Part shown: positions 2,240 through 26,529 of the stretch, in pieces | How positions within the stretch are numbered: position 1 is the first letter of the stretch | How the letters are laid out: the number at the start of each line of letters is the position of its first letter | Virus genome (UHGV): UHGV-0206450 | From: a virus | Length of the DNA stretch: 37,872 nt | Reading direction: 5' to 3' (one strand) | The notes under the pieces: generated by a model | The model's input: the letters and a program-made list of their open reading frames with translations, nothing else | What the model was told of the DNA's origin: nothing | The model's database searches: none | Translations under genes and position numbers: made by a program

Positions 2240-3595
2240 TTGCAACGAGTAGCAATTTATATGCGTGTATCGACTGATCAGCAGGCAAAACATGGTGACA
2301 GTTTAAGAGAACAACAAGAAACATTGGATGAATACATTAAGCGAAACAAAAATCTTAAAGTTGTAGATAAGTATATTGATGGCGGGATATCAGGTCAAAA
2401 ATTAAATAGAGACGAATTCCAGCGACTACTAGATGACGTGAAAAACGATCAAATAGACCTAATACTTTTTACGAAGTTAGATCGCTGGTTTCGTAATTTA
2501 AGGCACTATTTGAACACTCAAGAAATTTTGGAAAAACACAATGTTTCATGGAATGCCGTGTCTCAACAATACTACGATACAACTACAGCTTATGGCAGAA
2601 CTTTTATCGCACAAGTAATGAGCTTTGCTGAATTGGAGGCACAAATGACTTCTGAAAGAATCAAATCTGTTTTTTCAAACAAAATCCAGCAAGGTGAAGT
2701 TGTTAGTGGGAAAGTACCTTTAGGCTATAAGATTGAAAACAAAAGGTTAGTTCCCACTTCTGATAAAGATATTGTGATAGATTTATTTGATTATTATGTT
2801 CGAGTTGGATCTTTGAGAAAAACAACGACTTATCTAGAAGAAAAACATGGAATAGTTCGAGATTATCAAAGTGTTCGAAAACTTTTAACCAATGAAAAAT
2901 ACATCGGCAAACTTCGAAATAATACAAACTATTGCGAACCTATTATCGACAAAGATATTTTTGAAACAGTTCAACTAAGGCTATCTCAAAATGTAAAAAC
3001 TAGCGGTTCACACGATTATATTTTTAGGGGACTTGTTCGATGTGCGGATTGTGATGGCAGCATGTCTTGTTCAACTTTAAAATCAAAGTATATAAAAAAG
3101 ACAGACGGAGAAGTATCATATTACATTCGGTCTTGTTACAGATGTACCAAACGAAGGAACAACCCTACAAGATGCAAAAATAAAAAGACTTACTATGAGC
3201 GAGCATTAGAACGTTACTTGCTAGATAACATACAAACGAATATTGCTATGCATGTACGAACATTGAAAAAAGAAGTAACAAAGAAAGATTCAGTAAAAAG
3301 AAAAAAAGATGCTCTTTTCGTAAAAATCGAAAGATTAAAAAAAGCCTATCTTAACGAAATCATTGAGTTAGATGAATATAAACGAGATAGAGAATTGTTG
3401 GAAAACGAAATAGCTAGTTTAAAAGAGCCTAAAATCAATAAAAACATAGCTCCTTTAAAAAAAGTTTTGAGCGATGACTTCTTTGAAAAATACGAAAAAG
3501 CTTCAATTAATCAAAAAAATGAGTTATGGCGTTCAATAATAGAATCAATAGAGGTTAGTGTTGATGGAAATATCACTATTAATTTCTTGCCCTAA
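2240..3595 (+). CDS. int: Large serine recombinase (phage integrase, serine type)
   Basis: N-terminal resolvase catalytic motif VAIYMRVSTDQQ, a recombinase domain and a Cys-rich zinc ribbon (CADCDGSMSCS ... CYRCTKRRNNPTRC) followed by a coiled-coil C-terminus. 451 aa, with a TTG start after an AGGATG RBS. Confidence 0.9.
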   Translation: MQRVAIYMRVSTDQQAKHGDSLREQQETLDEYIKRNKNLKVVDKYIDGGISGQKLNRDEFQRLLDDVKNDQIDLILFTKLDRWFRNLRHYLNTQEILEKHNVSWNAVSQQYYDTTTAYGRTFIAQVMSFAELEAQMTSERIKSVFSNKIQQGEVVSGKVPLGYKIENKRLVPTSDKDIVIDLFDYYVRVGSLRKTTTYLEEKHGIVRDYQSVRKLLTNEKYIGKLRNNTNYCEPIIDKDIFETVQLRLSQNVKTSGSHDYIFRGLVRCADCDGSMSCSTLKSKYIKKTDGEVSYYIRSCYRCTKRRNNPTRCKNKKTYYERALERYLLDNIQTNIAMHVRTLKKEVTKKDSVKRKKDALFVKIERLKKAYLNEIIELDEYKRDRELLENEIASLKEPKINKNIAPLKKVLSDDFFEKYEKASINQKNELWRSIIESIEVSVDGNITINFLP

Positions 3596-4155: not shown

Positions 4156-5046
4156 TTATAGAATATTTCCCCAATCTGACAACTTACCTATAGCAATATA
4201 CCCCTTCTTGTAAGAATCATTTCGCGGTTGTACACCCCAAATATAGCCTGAACCAGTTACAATATCATTAAACTCAACTTTACTGCCCTTTTTTAAGGTT
4301 GCAATAATCTTGCTATTAGTATTTGCGCTAACACGTAAATTAACATTGTCTTTTAAAGTTACAGTTTTCATTTTTATTTTTCCTCCTATCGTCGAGTTAT
4401 TAGATGACCCATTGTTGTTTGAACTAGCAGAATGCTTACCAAAAAGATATTCAAATCCTTTGCGAACAATCCGATTCAAGTCGAGCGGTCCGGAATAGCC
4501 ACTTAGTTTTCCATTTGATGTGTACTGATGGAGATCATAGTTAGAAGTAGCTGTGGGATTCGAACCATTATACTGGCCATTGTTTGAACCGTATGAGGGA
4601 ATCCAGATACCATCAAATTTTGAAGTATCTAAATTAAAGTTTGCATACAAATGATTAGCAATATATGCCCCAACTTTCTTAGCACCTAGAGATTTCAATT
4701 TTGCTCGGTACTTTTCAATCCCAGTTCTCATATCGCTCATTGATTTTTCTTCCACGTCAAGCCACCAGAACGTTGGATTATATGCTTTCGCACGGTTATA
4801 GAAGTCTGTCGCCTCTTTCTCCATATCCGAATTAGAAACTCCTCGAACCCAAGCGTACACCGCTACTGGAACACCACGTTTTTGAAATTCTGCAATATGA
4901 GTTTTGTAGTGCTTGTCGATATACCTTGATCCATACTGTATACGAACAATTACACCGTCAATAGCACTGGCCAACTTATCATAATTGATAGTGTTTGGCG
5001 TTTGCCATTCACTAATATCCAAAATAACTGGTGTTGGAATACTCAT
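4156..5046 (-). CDS. Endolysin: GH25 muramidase plus a C-terminal SH3b-type cell-wall binding domain
   Basis: GH25 signature (ILDISEWQ ... YAWVRG ... WWLDVEE) and a C-terminal SH3_5-like segment. The start was refined to ATG 5046 (AAGGA RBS), just after the holin stop. Confidence 0.85.
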   Translation of the reverse strand: MSIPTPVILDISEWQTPNTINYDKLASAIDGVIVRIQYGSRYIDKHYKTHIAEFQKRGVPVAVYAWVRGVSNSDMEKEATDFYNRAKAYNPTFWWLDVEEKSMSDMRTGIEKYRAKLKSLGAKKVGAYIANHLYANFNLDTSKFDGIWIPSYGSNNGQYNGSNPTATSNYDLHQYTSNGKLSGYSGPLDLNRIVRKGFEYLFGKHSASSNNNGSSNNSTIGGKIKMKTVTLKDNVNLRVSANTNSKIIATLKKGSKVEFNDIVTGSGYIWGVQPRNDSYKKGYIAIGKLSDWGNIL

Positions 5047-5047
5047 T

Positions 5048-5359
5048 TTAATCATCCTTTCGCTCAGTGAATTCTTGGCCATCTCCATAATCGACTGTAT
5101 CTTTCTTTGGCTGTTCATAGGTTAAGGCTTGCTTGCTATCAGTAATACCTGTAGTTGTTGGATCATTGACGATGCCAATAATCACCAGAACTGCAAAAAC
5201 TGTATTGACTACTACGATCAGTTTGTTAACCAGGTCGCCAAAATCATACTCAAATCCAAAGACTGCAGCAATTGCTTGCACAGCTAATGCCAATGCTGGA
5301 ATCACTGCCAACCAAAATGCCTTGCTTTTCAAACGTAATTTCCAATTAATGTTGTTCAT
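5048..5359 (-). CDS. Holin (phi-LC3 / Phage_holin_1 type)
   Basis: MNNINWKLRLKSKAFWLAVIP with TM helices, immediately upstream of the endolysin. Confidence 0.8.
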   Translation of the reverse strand: MNNINWKLRLKSKAFWLAVIPALALAVQAIAAVFGFEYDFGDLVNKLIVVVNTVFAVLVIIGIVNDPTTTGITDSKQALTYEQPKKDTVDYGDGQEFTERKDD

Positions 5360-16217: not shown

Positions 16218-17093
16218 CTAACGACTAACTCTTTTAATTGCTTCCACATATTTTGCTGACGCTTTTCTTTTATTAACAAAAGATAGATCATCTTCAAATG
16301 GTGATGTATCAACGTACTTGCCTTTAAAGAATAGATCGCGATCTTTTTCGGTTACTCCTGCATTATGAAGAATTTTTACTTGTTTACATTTCTCAATTGA
16401 ATCCGTAGAAAAGCAAAAAGATAATTCTTCGTGGATTTTAGGTCCAACATTGAAATACATCATATTCCAAAGTTGCGCCCACATTTCAGCAGTCCATTTT
16501 TGAATGTTGCTATTCACTTTTTTAAAGTATTGATAAAGACGATTTGAATCGAAATAAACTTTTTTCCAATACTCCGCTCTAGGATTCTTTATAACCCACT
16601 GTGCACCACCAGAATTAAAATTAATGGTTTCCAACGATTCCACTGAAACATTTACGATCTCAGCCATACCTTTCAAAATAGATTCTCCATTTTCACAACT
16701 GCGAATATAATCAAGATTTAGGTAGTGGTTGCAATCACTGCAATACCAAACATCTTCTTTTGAAGTCATTTTACGCAAATCAATCTTTTGATTGAAAATG
16801 ACATCCGAATCAATATAAACATACCGCTCTTTTTCACGTTTAGGATCTTCTTTCAAGTATTGCCACCACAGATAAGGCTTGATAGAAGGAATATAACCTT
16901 TATCCTCTCTATCATCTCTATATACGTGAACTTCAACATTGTATTTATCAGCTAAATAAGCAGGAATTGTTGAATCATGTTCGCTAAAAAGCAGTACAAT
17001 ATCATTGATACCGAACGACTTCAAGTTAGTTAAACAAACTTCAAGTTCCCACTTGAAACGATTGATAGCAGGTTGACAAAGAATATATTTCAT
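16218..17093 (-). CDS. Putative glycosyltransferase-like protein (291 aa) embedded in the tail gene cluster
   Basis: A hydrophobic strand followed by a DxD motif (RYVYIDSDVIF). Sits immediately after the major tail protein gene, and both major tail and major capsid proteins end in oligo-Thr tracts. The assignment rests on motif and position only. Confidence 0.4.
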   Translation of the reverse strand: MKYILCQPAINRFKWELEVCLTNLKSFGINDIVLLFSEHDSTIPAYLADKYNVEVHVYRDDREDKGYIPSIKPYLWWQYLKEDPKREKERYVYIDSDVIFNQKIDLRKMTSKEDVWYCSDCNHYLNLDYIRSCENGESILKGMAEIVNVSVESLETINFNSGGAQWVIKNPRAEYWKKVYFDSNRLYQYFKKVNSNIQKWTAEMWAQLWNMMYFNVGPKIHEELSFCFSTDSIEKCKQVKILHNAGVTEKDRDLFFKGKYVDTSPFEDDLSFVNKRKASAKYVEAIKRVSR

Positions 17094-17102
17094 TTTTCTC
17101 AC

Positions 17103-23885: not shown

Positions 23886-25181
23886 CTAGCCAAAGAAAAA
23901 CTTGGCTGCTTTCATTTTTTCTTGAATATCTTGTTTACTGTACATATCATCAGAAAATGCATACCGAGTAGCATCAATCGTGTGATTGTCCTTATCCTCT
24001 AGGCGGGGCTTAGGATTTCCATCTTTATCTACTTGATAGTCGATATTTTCAAACTCCCTTGCAATATTGGGGGTTCTATTGGGATCGATACATATAAAGT
24101 CCAGGTCATCCAACCATTGTTCTCCGTACTCCACACTATCTGGTCCTTTTTTCACTCCGAATACCCGTGTCATAAAGTGGTCATTTCTCAATTCTGCTAT
24201 TGACTTTGGCTCTGCTGAATCGGCATTAATTCGATCCGATTGATACCCTTTCGCACACGCTTTACTTGCGAACTCACGGTTGCTAATCTTCACACCGTAG
24301 ATTTCGTCAACAGCATAGATGCCATTCTTTTTCTTGTCATAATGCCAACGGACAAATGCCAATGGATCCGTTGCATATCCAAAGTCTAGACCGTTACGGA
24401 TATTGTCGAAATTGGCTACCATGTCATCAGTGATGCTGCCAGATTTGACCTTGAGATTATCGAATGGTACGACACCAGAGCCGATAGCTTTCCCCATGTA
24501 CTCCCATTCGAATCGCCGGAAGTTACGTTCTTTCGTTACTTCTGCTTCCTCAATGAACTTTTTAGAGATGAACGGATTATCAAGATAAGTCGTATGATGG
24601 ACTTGAGTGTTTTCTGGTTGAAAGCTAGTTTCGTATTTTTTATTCACCCAAGACTGTTTTCGTTTAGGTGGGTTGTAGCTAAAAAAGAATTTATAAAAAA
24701 GACCATCAGAAAGTTCACCACGTAAAAGTGAGTTCGTAATGGTCGTTACAGATTCTTCTGTTTTGAATTCCGCCAGTTCTTCAATCCAAGCAATAGTAAA
24801 AGGGAATCTACTGTCCTTTAGAGATTTTATGCGATCTGGATTTTGTCCGCCACGAAATGCAATATAATTTCCGCGTGGTTTGTAAGTGATACGCATAGGG
24901 CTTTTGGTTATGCGAAAATAGGCATCAACCTCTTGTTCGGCAATAGCCCATTTCAATTGTTCATAAACAGAAAGCTCAATGTTCTCACCAACGTAGCGAA
25001 TGGCAACAGCATTCACTGGGTAACGCATGATTAATTGAATAATGATATGAGCGATATCAGAAGACTTACCTGAACCACGGCCGCCTTTTTCAACGACATT
25101 CAAGATATTTTGATTTAAAGCGGCACGCCATGTCGTATGGAAAGCTTTAGGTAGAAATTCAGATATCTTCTTAACTACCAT
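23886..25181 (-). CDS. terL: Terminase large subunit
   Basis: Walker A GGRGSGKS. 431 aa. Terminase_3/PBSX-like. Confidence 0.9.
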   Translation of the reverse strand: MVVKKISEFLPKAFHTTWRAALNQNILNVVEKGGRGSGKSSDIAHIIIQLIMRYPVNAVAIRYVGENIELSVYEQLKWAIAEQEVDAYFRITKSPMRITYKPRGNYIAFRGGQNPDRIKSLKDSRFPFTIAWIEELAEFKTEESVTTITNSLLRGELSDGLFYKFFFSYNPPKRKQSWVNKKYETSFQPENTQVHHTTYLDNPFISKKFIEEAEVTKERNFRRFEWEYMGKAIGSGVVPFDNLKVKSGSITDDMVANFDNIRNGLDFGYATDPLAFVRWHYDKKKNGIYAVDEIYGVKISNREFASKACAKGYQSDRINADSAEPKSIAELRNDHFMTRVFGVKKGPDSVEYGEQWLDDLDFICIDPNRTPNIAREFENIDYQVDKDGNPKPRLEDKDNHTIDATRYAFSDDMYSKQDIQEKMKAAKFFFG

Positions 25182-25614
25182 CTAAATCACCTATATCGTC
25201 AATAAATTGCGGCGGTTCTGTAATTGCCACCTCAGACTTATCAGTGAACAGTGCATAACGTTTACCAATATCAACGGCTGCGGCTCTCCTAGTCTGCACA
25301 CTTGGCTGCAGCTCAACAACTTTCTGATAGCCATCACCGTCTAAAATTGGAACAGGCTCTTTCACTTCACCTCTCATGACAGAAGTTAAAAATTCGATGA
25401 CTTCCTGTGCATCGGCAGTTCGCTCATTGTGCATAATTTCCAACTGTTCATCTATGTAGGCTTTTACGTTAACATTCGTTAACAATCGGCTAGCTGCAGC
25501 TTTTGCTACAGAATCCTTTTTGACGCTCTTGTATGCCGCTTTATAAGCTCTTGTGCCGTTTAGATCTTTGAGGTACTCATCTGCAAATACTTGTTGCTTA
25601 TTGGTAATAGTCAT
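25171..25614 (-). CDS. terS: Terminase small subunit
   Basis: N-terminal MTITNKQQVFADEYLKDLNGTRAYKAAYKS, typical of Terminase_2 small subunits. Overlaps terL by 11 nt. Confidence 0.8.
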   Translation of the reverse strand: MTITNKQQVFADEYLKDLNGTRAYKAAYKSVKKDSVAKAAASRLLTNVNVKAYIDEQLEIMHNERTADAQEVIEFLTSVMRGEVKEPVPILDGDGYQKVVELQPSVQTRRAAAVDIGKRYALFTDKSEVAITEPPQFIDDIGDLDGS

Positions 25615-25633
25615 GTTCGTTCACCTTCTTTCT

Positions 25634-25662
25634 GCACAAAAAAACGGCCCATAACAGGACCG
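25634..25662 (-). terminator. Terminator just 3' of the tRNA (- strand)
   Basis: On the - strand: CGGTCC-tgttat-GGGCCG (one G-U pair) followed by TTTTTTT. The hairpin is weaker on the + strand because of a C-A mismatch. Confidence 0.45.
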
Positions 25663-25729
25663 CTTTCTTTTTTATACTCTAGTAGGAAGTATCAAAGATC
25701 ATGTGAGTAATCTAACCGACAACTCCCAA

Positions 25730-25803
25730 TCAGGAATGTAGGATTTGAACCTACGACCTCTACTGCCCAAGAGTAGCGCTCTACCAAGCTGAGCCAATTC
25801 CTG
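25730..25803 (-). tRNA. tRNA-Pro (anticodon UGG), 74 nt, with no encoded CCA
   Basis: Hand-folded cloverleaf: 7-bp acceptor CAGGAAT/ATTCCTG with the C1-G72 pair characteristic of bacterial tRNA-Pro, A73 discriminator, D-arm GCTC-AGCTTGGTA-GAGC, anticodon arm CTACT-CTTGGGC-AGTAG (U33 U34 G35 G36 G37), T-arm GTAGG-TTCAAAT-CCTAC. Confidence 0.8.
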
Positions 25804-25967
25804 TCTTAAGACGGCTAGCGAATGAAGATAAGGAGTGTGTTCAACTCCATTCATTTTAAATTTTTGGGTGCCGTCTTAATTAAATACAGGGCGCTAAAAG
25901 GAGAATCACGAAAGTAGGTCTGCCAACTGATCATAAAGGAGTGCGCCCTGTTATTTACAATTTTTTG

Positions 25968-25997
25968 ATAATACTATTGTATTACGCCAAATGTCAA
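25968..25997 (-). promoter_or_regulatory. Near-consensus sigma-A promoter on the - strand, driving the tRNA leader and possibly late transcription
   Basis: On the - strand: TTTTTGACA, an 18-nt spacer, then TATTAT. It sits directly downstream of two direct repeats. Confidence 0.5.
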
Positions 25998-26003
25998 AAA
26001 TGT

Positions 26004-26040
26004 CCTATTTTATCCCTAACTTTTCCCTATTTTATCCCTA
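26004..26040. repeat. Two direct copies of CCTATTTTATCCCTA spaced 22 bp apart, immediately upstream of the - strand promoter
   Basis: Copies at 26004-26018 and 26026-40. Candidate activator (ArpU-type) binding sites. Confidence 0.4.
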
Positions 26041-26529
26041 ATTTTTTAGAGTGATCAGTTCTCCCATCTTATATGCTTCAGCAAATGCGATCAAAGCCTG
26101 TGCTTTTAAGCGTTCAATATTCTTGATGCTATAGTGAAATTCTTCCTTCTGGCCATAAGTGGTGATCCTGTATCCAGTTATGCTTGCTGCCAACTCGTTG
26201 ATCGTACATGGGTTCTTTACACAGTATGATTTTTTCAGTATCTTCTGATAAATGTCAGGCAGCTGCTTAATAGCATGATCGATTTCAGCAATTTTCCTAT
26301 TATAGTTTTGATGTTGCTTGGTTATCCCTCTAAACATCATAGCAGTTTTATGCTCCTGTCCATTACGGCTGCTTGGGCTTTTGGGCATGTCACTGTATTG
26401 TATGGCTTGAGTTAGATCATAGACACTGTCGTCAAAACTCACATGCCTCTTCATTGACATATAGTCTCCGAGAAGCTCACGTGCTCGTTCACGAGTTTTA
26501 TTCTCATCAATTTCTGGAAATAAGCTCAT
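26038..26529 (-). CDS. ArpU-family late transcriptional regulator
   Basis: 163 aa. Lies immediately upstream of the tRNA/terS region. Characteristic C-terminal segment (ASITGYRITTYGQKEEFHYSIKNIERL). GGAGGGG RBS. Confidence 0.75.
   Translation of the reverse strand: MSLFPEIDENKTRERARELLGDYMSMKRHVSFDDSVYDLTQAIQYSDMPKSPSSRNGQEHKTAMMFRGITKQHQNYNRKIAEIDHAIKQLPDIYQKILKKSYCVKNPCTINELAASITGYRITTYGQKEEFHYSIKNIERLKAQALIAFAEAYKMGELITLKN

Follow-up and report, generated by a model that had tools for sequence, protein, structure and literature searches.

How the late genes of a temperate phage are transcribed when a transfer RNA (tRNA) gene and an intrinsic terminator stand directly before them is the question raised by the UHGV virus genome UHGV-0206450. 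The window, which is the whole stretch of 37,872 nucleotides (nt) that was analysed, is a complete temperate siphophage genome. On its minus strand, to which all features below belong unless stated otherwise, a gap of 423 nt separates arpU, the gene of the late transcriptional activator, from terS, the first late gene. In a preliminary description, this gap was seen as a self-contained tRNA-Pro unit with direct repeats, a promoter, a structured leader and a terminator, and two explanations were offered: late transcription starts at this promoter and reads through, or the tRNA is a moron with its own unit. The first of these is favoured by comparative and published data. The gap is read here as the control region and processed leader of a single late operon, which we consider fairly probable: transcription would start at 25961, the tRNA would be excised by RNase P and RNase Z, and the terminator would be crossed.

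A probable ArpU operator and late promoter

The product of arpU (26038-26529) matches NCBIfam TIGR01637 phage_arpU with 55.3 bits (cut-off 43.1) and PHROG 248, 'transcriptional activator', with an E-value of 1.7e-21. When its profile was compared with PDB and Pfam, sub-threshold matches to region 4 of extracytoplasmic function (ECF) sigma-70 factors were obtained, and nothing else. At the end of the gene, a 16-nt repeat, TTAGGGATAAAATAGG, occurs exactly twice (26041-26026 and 26019-26004); with up to three mismatches, three matches are found against 0.52 expected, and the repeat family reaches 21 nt at 95% identity. The preliminary description had reported two 15-bp (base pair) direct repeats that overlap the arpU stop. 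The repeats are present, as is the overlap, with the stop codon TAG (26040-26038) lying inside the upstream copy; the exact copies measure 16 nt, and their finer grain is a series of four boxes. These are TAGGG at 26040-26036, 26029-26025 and 26018-26014 and TAGGA at 26007-26003, spaced by exactly 11 bp, the first of which contains the stop codon. Together, the boxes cover 26003-26041, upstream of the -35 hexamer and at about -79 to -42 relative to the predicted start, and no TAGGG repeat was found elsewhere in the 37.9-kb genome.

The adjacent promoter (25968-25997) consists of the -35 hexamer TTGACA (25997-25992), an 18-nt spacer and the -10 hexamer TATTAT (25973-25968), as had been claimed. 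It agrees with the consensus at 11 of 12 positions and is the best site within 3 kb, and the start of transcription is predicted near A25961.

Among 48 related loci, four activator classes have been identified, each with its own 11-bp-phased box ahead of a common -10 and leader. The box is TAGGG in class A, to which the window belongs, TGGCGG in class B, ATGTGG in class C (phage EG-TP1) and ATGCACA in class D, where the activator is not an ArpU. The position of the -10 is fixed in all 37 distinct relatives; a good, consensus-like -35 is found in class A alone, and it is poor in the other three classes. The ArpU of class B is 70% identical to that of phage phiFL2A, in which three copies of TTGGCGG directly distal to arpU are needed for the activation of terS and bind ArpU in gel shift assays (PMC3753634). 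Binding of the activator to the repeats and the need for the activator in terS expression are experimental results for phiFL2A and for other late transcriptional regulator (Ltr) proteins (PMC3753634), and repeat blocks that were transplanted ahead of the phiFL2A intergenic region carry the activator specificity along. Judged by their period, their covariation with the activator class and the analogy with phiFL2A, the four TAGGG/TAGGA boxes are probably the ArpU operator. Since box and activator class covary and operator data are available for phiFL2A, the late promoter that depends on ArpU is most likely the one at 25997-25968.

Two further observations concern the activators. In locus L075, the ArpU is 63% identical to that of the window and TAGGG is present five times, and the leader is unrelated. 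The class D activator, with the C-terminus ...GIDMINDW and three ATGCACA boxes, fronts the common cassette in L003, L007, L008, L015, L019, L020, L026, L033 and L069. It has no match in NCBIfam and is not ArpU-like, and it may be a member of another Ltr family.

The leader and its two hairpins

Downstream of the predicted start, two hairpins precede the tRNA, and both the 9-bp stem and the long hairpin with a 10-bp outer stem of the preliminary description were recovered. Hairpin 1 (25881-25957) has a folding energy of -24.4 kcal/mol and z = -4.2, the z-scores given here for hairpins and terminator being folding energies compared with those of shuffled sequences. It consists of a GC-rich 9-bp stem with an A-U extension, and its arms, 25951-25943 and 25894-25886, pair at nine of nine positions. 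Within it lie two AAAGGAG boxes, which read CUCCUUU in the RNA, resemble an anti-Shine-Dalgarno sequence and are unpaired in nearly all relatives. Reading these boxes on the plus strand was rejected, as no plus-strand open reading frame (ORF) follows them. Hairpin 1 is kept, almost invariant, in 34 distinct relatives; because there is nearly no variation, its support comes from stability and conservation instead of a covariation test.

Hairpin 2 (25806-25879; -20.7 kcal/mol, z = -4.5) ends 2 nt ahead of the tRNA. Its 10-bp outer stem closes around a segment rich in A and an inner GGAGU/ACUCC hairpin, after which comes a run rich in U. In 34 of 48 relatives, the sequence after the hairpin is TTT(C/T/A) and in 8 more it is AATT; the window version is TTAAGA, without a U-tract. 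Within the close cassette family, covariation is uninformative for both hairpins, with a mean column identity of the leader of 89% and a covariation term of -0.28.

Searches of Rfam with the window (at the gathering threshold, and at E <= 10 for 25500-26200) and with 13 related loci returned the tRNA and otherwise chance-level matches to small nucleolar RNAs and small RNAs. By this comparison, the leader is neither a T-box nor a riboswitch nor a member of another curated Rfam family.

An 8-mer, CACUCCUU, is present twice in the leader, at 25943-25936 in the internal loop of hairpin 1 and at 25837-25830, where it forms the inner 3' arm of hairpin 2. Both copies are able to pair with AAUGGAGU (25851-25844), a possible alternative pairing. 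A 51-amino-acid ORF at 25699-25854 was considered as a gene and rejected. It shares sequence with hairpin 2 and the tRNA, lacks a Shine-Dalgarno sequence and is put out of frame in relatives by a 1-nt indel.

A conserved cassette with an exchangeable tRNA slot

The 48 loci were collected in several ways. An exact-string search of viral contigs with the 3' arm of hairpin 2 gave 42 loci, and a search with the trailer added 3. GenBank contributed Enterococcus gallinarum phage EG-TP1 and a gut contig, and Enterococcus casseliflavus was the one true match in a scan of species-representative genomes that also gave 21 chance matches in GC-rich genomes. In these loci, the -10, hairpins 1 and 2, the trailer and a terminator are kept as a cassette with a conservation of about 90%, and the types of the flanking activator and of terS vary. 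The unit is thus not self-contained, as it had been called, since its repeats covary with the activator class, its leader and trailer form a conserved cassette and its tRNA is interchangeable.

In the window, the slot between hairpin 2 and the trailer holds tRNA-Pro(UGG) at 25730-25803, with no CCA encoded. ARAGORN calls it tRNA-Pro (tgg), and Rfam RF00005 gives 66.9 bits against a gathering score of 29. The tRNA folds into a canonical cloverleaf, and C1-G72 and A73, which the preliminary description had pointed out, are present together with G35-G36, G37, U8, G18G19, U33, U54U55C56 and the T-loop UUCAAAU; the proline identity elements are among these positions. On these grounds, the tRNA looks real and functional.

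tRNA-Pro(UGG) fills the slot in 14 of the 48 loci, and in 3 more it stands there with a second tRNA. A tRNA-Lys(UUU) is found in 11 (among them L002 150-225 and the slots of L011, L014, L016, L022, L030, L031, L034, L040 and L041). Its acceptor, D and T arms are as in tRNA-Pro; C1-G72 and A73 are common to both, and the anticodon arm alone differs from that of the window tRNA, so that the pair looks like an anticodon-arm swap on one scaffold.

In 20 of the 48 loci, the slot contains a non-canonical, non-decoding tRNA-like RNA. The family of these RNAs includes L001 3195-3290 (EG-TP1), the slots of L003, L010, L018, L023, L027, L056 and L068, and, in phiFL2A, L077 2049-2097. These RNAs have a 7-bp acceptor stem GTCACTG/CAGTGRC, a D-arm-like stem and a T arm that often has the loop UGCAAAU; in place of a regular anticodon arm there is none, a short form with a 5-nt loop, or a long insert. 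The Rfam tRNA model did not detect them at E <= 1, and ARAGORN called two of them, as an odd tRNA-Phe(AAA) and tRNA-Val(AAC). None of the payloads encodes CCA, and the sequence after them is UUGGGAG or UUUGGGAG. The acceptor stem and the T arm are the parts that are recognised by RNase P and RNase Z. The frequency of non-decoding payloads suggests that the slot is selected at least as much for a processing mark as for decoding. A use in translation or against tRNA-directed defence may come on top of this for the canonical Pro and Lys tRNAs.

The slot of L035 is unusually long, with about 690 nt between hairpin 2, which ends near 2082 on the minus strand, and the trailer at 1402. It holds an insertion of about 590 nt with coding potential on both strands, followed by a tRNA-like element, which indicates that the slot is able to take protein-coding cargo. 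In L011, L022, L040 and L067, an extended -10 promoter, TGATATAAT, and a small ORF beginning MKDYIL... are located 20-70 nt past the cassette terminator and before the packaging genes. The insertion resembles a moron of its own, equipped with a promoter.

The trailer hairpin and the terminator

The trailer hairpin (25685-25727), identified by folding, starts 2 nt past the discriminator base of the tRNA. In 36 distinct relatives, it shows many wobble-compatible one-sided changes and one double change. It is proposed to be the 5' protective hairpin of a processed late mRNA.

The intrinsic terminator (25638-25669) has its stem at 25663-25645 and seven U residues at 25644-25638, with an A-tract on the 5' side (-18 kcal/mol, z = -4.3), and lies 70 nt past the tRNA. 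A simple terminator scan missed it, and it was found by folding. The hairpin and the seven U residues of the preliminary description are there, and their span, 25634-25662, was a few nt off. The spacing also had to be corrected: the U-tract was said to end about 20 nt before the ribosome-binding site, and it stops about 9 nt short of the terS Shine-Dalgarno sequence (25628-25622), leaving 23 nt to the ATG at 25614. These 23 nt are too short for a promoter, in agreement with the earlier claim that no separate late promoter fits between terminator and terS. As terS has no promoter of its own there, late transcription must cross the terminator.

A hairpin with a T-run occupies the terminator position in 36 of 36 distinct relatives, and it comes in two unrelated sequence types. 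Judging from these alignments, terminator function is conserved and a specific antiterminator pairing is not. Attenuation by alternative pairing is unlikely, because one trailer is joined to two unrelated terminator sequences. A pairing between leader and trailer, ACUCCU with GGGAGU, was considered and dropped, having no covariation support.

A near-identical terminator, AGATCACTCnTTGAGTGGTCTTTTTATTT, was observed 19-29 nt before the first late ORF in many ArpU phages of the Enterococcus faecalis type (many loci from L082 to L153). It is also present in L075 (3190-3325), where the leader is otherwise unrelated.

A hairpin motif shared by Enterococcus ArpU phages

A survey of 80 ArpU loci places hairpin 2 in a wider family. 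At about 145 nt past the arpU stop, most of the Enterococcus phages surveyed have a long hairpin with an outer stem of 8-14 bp, an inner GGAKKUGAA...CUCCUU hairpin and a U-rich run. The window has the corresponding arrangement, a sense-strand stem of at least 8 bp around GGAKKUGAA...CUCCUU about 75-150 nt past the late promoter. Between hairpin 2 of the window and its versions in E. faecalis phages, the outer stems are homologous, with compensatory changes (AAGACGGC/GCCGTCTT versus TAGACAGC/GCTGTCTA), and the covariation support for hairpin 2 arose after the E. faecalis versions had been added. Double changes are found in 6 of 8 pairs of the outer stem, and 98.9% of the cells are paired; none of 500 shuffles reached as much, and slid controls collapse. 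Within the E. faecalis type, too, series of A-U, G-U and G-C are seen at single pairs.

A covariance model, R1, gave sense-strand matches in 68 of 80 sources, with 42-85 bits against 22-37 bits on the antisense strand; 26 of the matches are training sequences, and the training elements had been picked for having the stem. In the window, its sole sense-strand match is 25808-25877 (67.1 bits, E = 7e-12), and the same interval scores 24.8 bits (E 0.023) on the plus strand. The motif has no counterpart in Rfam. By covariation and model score, hairpin 2 belongs to a late-leader RNA motif that is found in Enterococcus ArpU phages.

The published start site of phage phiFL2A

The corresponding region of phiFL2A (L077, GQ478084.1 12412-15225) has a gap of about 795 nt between arpU and terS, the identity of terS having been checked. 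In it, the order of parts is repeats, promoter-like site, 5' hairpin, hairpin-2 motif, a minimal tRNA-like RNA (L077 2049-2097), tRNA-Arg(ACG) (L077 2219-2291), an 8-bp hairpin that begins at L077 2292, 0 nt past the tRNA, a terminator with a 12-bp stem and a U-tract, and the terS ribosome-binding site. The promoter-like site, directly past the repeats, is the sole one in an interval of 820 nt. Phage phiFL1A has the same order of parts with tRNA-Asn, a hairpin 0 nt past the tRNA and a terminator, and in Streptococcus pneumoniae phage EJ-1 a tRNA is located in the corresponding gap.

For phiFL2A, the terS start site was placed by rapid amplification of cDNA ends (5' RACE) at a G 118 bp before the ATG, as given in the text of the paper, and the kit that was used does not separate primary from processed 5' ends (PMC3753634). 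The word tRNA does not occur in that paper (PMC3753634). As located from that text, the 5' end corresponds to L077 2294, 3 nt past the discriminator base of tRNA-Arg, in the 5' arm of the 8-bp hairpin and upstream of the terminator. An end within 3 nt of the tRNA end has a chance expectation of about 1% in 795 nt. RNase Z handles CCA-less tRNAs in Firmicutes. The coincidence suggests that the terS mRNA of phiFL2A extends upstream through the terminator and that its 5' end is made by tRNA 3' processing; RNase Z may be the enzyme, with subsequent trimming up to the hairpin. With this processing, the odd distance of 650 nt between the operator and the "start site" would be removed.

Proposed expression of the late operon and alternative explanations

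In the proposed sequence of events, ArpU would bind the four phased boxes, which begin at its own stop codon, and activate the adjacent promoter, with a start near 25961. The transcript would contain hairpins 1 and 2, the tRNA-Pro, the trailer hairpin and the terminator, and then terS with about 21 kb of late genes. A cut by RNase P at the 5' end of the tRNA would free a leader RNA of about 158 nt ending in hairpin 2. As no CCA is encoded, RNase Z would cut after A73 and free the tRNA, leaving the 5' end of the late mRNA 2 nt from the trailer hairpin. In Bacillus subtilis, 5'-proximal stem-loops stabilise mRNA against RNase J1. Most transcripts would be stopped at the terminator, and the fraction that passes would be the late mRNA. 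Those stopped would include read-through from the early operon that contains arpU, since there is no terminator between arpU and the promoter. This account builds on the elements themselves, their conservation, the covariation of operator and activator and the hairpin-2 family, from which start, processing, protection by the hairpin and read-through are deduced. As to how the terminator is crossed, the economical view is that some transcription from a strongly activated promoter simply leaks through, and active antitermination is a serious alternative.

Several points weigh against this account. The start, both cleavages and the read-through are predictions from the DNA of the window. Given its consensus -35, the window promoter might fire without ArpU, unlike those of classes B to D. 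The hairpin 2 of most relatives, with its U-rich run, could terminate many transcripts before the tRNA, and RNase Z might be impeded by a hairpin that follows the discriminator base directly. With U7 and -18 kcal/mol, the terminator looks strong, so that simple leakage may be small. The phiFL2A 5' end, as its position is given in the paper, is 3 nt and not 0 nt from the tRNA end, and the authors themselves read it as a start site. Finally, exonuclease-treated RNA supports, for phages phi11 and 80alpha, a true start that lies 23 bp upstream of terS, so that processing need not hold for all Ltr systems.

Active antitermination is the alternative that survives best, being unlikely rather than remote. 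Here, polymerase that started at this promoter would be resistant to terminators, either through a put-like leader RNA in cis or through ArpU travelling with it in the manner of Q, and the terminator would separate late-promoter transcripts from early-operon read-through. Three leader types that are unrelated to each other (the window cassette, L075 and L076) have a terminator immediately ahead of the first late gene, and so do phiFL2A and phiFL1A. In a published reporter, read-through from Pcad across arpU was silent without the activator, and activator-dependent transcripts reached terS (PMC3753634). No terminator fits between the phiFL2A arpU stop and the repeats, which places the blocking terminator downstream of the repeats; a far stronger late promoter combined with a leaky terminator, however, explains the reporter data equally well. 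Antitermination is also in line with a conserved, covarying and strand-specific hairpin 2 between late promoter and terminator in most Enterococcus ArpU phages, and with further hairpin and T sites inside the late operon (16235-16206 and 11461-11438). The joining of one trailer to two unrelated terminators speaks against a specific antiterminator pairing. On the other hand, neither similarity to any Rfam family nor a Q-like protein was found, and the matches of ArpU to sigma-70 region 4 are sub-threshold. A reporter for the Ltr of Phi13 that spans -200 to +50 and has no terminator was still Ltr-dependent, indicating that Ltr proteins act at least on initiation. In addition, many hairpin-2 loci of the E. 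faecalis type have no clear terminator before the first ORF in a crude survey, whose terminator frequencies are lower bounds.

A specific form of this idea, equally doubtful, is that the leader, with hairpin 1 and the hairpin-2 motif, is a new cis-acting antitermination device, acting as RNA alone or with ArpU, and that the tRNA or tRNA-like RNA is the cutting mark by which the device is removed. If true, the device would override the terminator before terS as well as later terminators, late control by Ltr proteins would consist of activation plus antitermination, and RNA processing would account for the large distance between activator sites and mapped "start sites".

An improbable explanation, compatible with the processed late leader proposed here, is that the small RNAs are the point of the unit: the tRNA would supplement or replace a host tRNA, for example against tRNA-cleaving nucleases, and the leader would serve as a trans-acting small RNA of anti-Shine-Dalgarno type. 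The anticodon nucleases PrrC and PARIS have tRNA-Lys(UUU) as their classical target. Both the tRNA-Pro and the tRNA-Lys(UUU) payloads are canonical and retain their identity elements, the CUCCUUU boxes of hairpin 1 remain unpaired in nearly all relatives, and StxS is a precedent for a terminated late-promoter leader that works as a regulatory small RNA (PMC7547250). Against this, 20 of the 48 payloads are unable to decode.

It is very improbable that the region is an independent moron, a tRNA-Pro unit with a constitutive promoter and an efficient terminator, expressed also in the prophage, with the late genes transcribed from elsewhere: the promoter is indeed near consensus (11/12), the terminator 70 nt past the tRNA is strong and the slot content is exchangeable, up to the ORFs of L035, but there is no room for another promoter before terS, the ArpU boxes have no second copy in the genome, are positioned exactly ahead of this promoter and vary together with the activator, the promoters of classes B to D lack a -35 and are thus not constitutive, and the terS RNA of phiFL2A appears to run upstream through the terminator to the tRNA. 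The moron alternative of the preliminary description also fits poorly with an operator layout as published for ArpU (PMC3753634) and with the non-decoding content of 20 of the 48 slots.

Comparison with known systems

The closest known system is the ArpU (Ltr family I) late control region of E. faecalis phage phiFL2A, in which arpU is likewise followed by phased repeats that are the operator and by a long non-coding gap to terS (Quiles-Puchalt et al. 2013, PMC3753634). In the deposited sequence, the parts have the same order as in the window: 5' hairpin, hairpin-2 motif, tRNA or tRNA-like RNA, abutting hairpin, terminator and terS ribosome-binding site. The two differ in the box (TTGGCGG versus TAGGG), in the payload (tRNA-Arg(ACG) and a minimal tRNA-like RNA versus tRNA-Pro) and in the length of the gap (about 795 versus 423 nt); their leaders cannot be aligned save for the hairpin-2 motif, and the phiFL2A paper places the start site 118 bp before terS. 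Lactococcal phage TP901-1, as cited in PMC3152322, has the activator Alt on repeats at -76 to -32 and a late promoter before terS, comparable with the boxes of the window at about -79 to -42. Alt belongs to another family. To our knowledge, no tRNA or conserved leader has been described in TP901-1.

In the Stx phage 933W, the late region consists of Q, PR', tR' and then the tRNA genes ileZ-argN-argO. Stx phages thus share with the window tRNA genes in the late transcript directly past the late regulator gene and promoter. They also share a promoter-near terminator that has to be crossed, and in StxS a short terminated leader can be a functional RNA (PMC7547250). They differ in that Q antiterminates at a constitutive promoter in Gram-negative hosts and that neither protein nor RNA is homologous; the regulator of the window is an activator on upstream repeats. 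A lambda Q and PR'-tR' arrangement was not found in the window, where the regulator is ArpU with sites upstream of the -35 and no Q-family protein was detected.

The put RNAs of phage HK022 are a cis-acting antiterminator RNA. The likeness is one of architecture alone: two stable stem-loops are located past a promoter and before terminators that essential genes must cross. There is no sequence match or Rfam match (E <= 10), and the window hairpins are much larger, with 66 and 74 nt and internal structure. A T-box or riboswitch attenuator is not indicated either, since there is no Rfam match and two unrelated terminators follow one trailer.

In tRNA punctuation, and where small RNAs derive from tRNA spacers such as 3'ETS-leuZ of Escherichia coli, adjacent RNAs are bounded by tRNA ends that RNase P and RNase Z or RNase E generate, and the pieces on either side have a stable structure. 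This resembles the arrangement proposed for the window; the window-type slot differs by taking even non-decoding tRNA-like elements. We know of no described case of tRNA punctuation of late mRNA in a phage of Gram-positive bacteria. Already known are the Ltr/ArpU late promoter and, from Stx phages, tRNA genes within a late leader. The conserved, exchangeable cassette, the tRNA-like payloads, the hairpin-2 motif and the processing reading of a published start site appear undescribed in the literature searched.

Genome context

The region is part of a minus-strand gene train that runs from an antirepressor gene through arpU and terS to terL, the portal, head and tail genes and the endolysin gene. 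terS (25171-25614; Pfam Terminase_2, E = 2.9e-27) opens a late operon of 21 kb, 25614 to 4156, that continues with terL and the genes for the portal, the major head protein and the tape measure protein, all on the minus strand, and ends with the endolysin gene (4156-5118), the last of the train. A repressor gene (1253-1858) and a serine integrase gene (2240-3595) are located on the plus strand. Inside the late operon, long hairpins with T-runs are present at 16235-16206 and 11461-11438, with 13 and 10 pairs; one lies after the ORF 16218-17102 and the other near the tape measure gene. By their sequence, they are possible internal terminators in the path of late transcription.

Significance

ArpU, RinA and other Ltr activators govern packaging, lysis and transduction in many phages of Gram-positive pathogens. 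Their mechanism has so far been described as that of a simple activator with an oddly distant start site. The results suggest that, in the ArpU phages of Enterococcus, the real late promoter adjoins the operator and that the late mRNA begins as a long structured leader, often with a tRNA or a tRNA mimic. For at least one published start site, tRNA 3' processing upstream of a terminator is the probable origin. Three ideas are thereby opened to direct test: that tRNAs punctuate a phage late mRNA, that read-through or antitermination is obligatory, and that the leader contains a new conserved RNA motif. As a natural site for the exchange of tRNAs, tRNA-Lys(UUU) among them, the cassette is also relevant to defence systems that target tRNAs.

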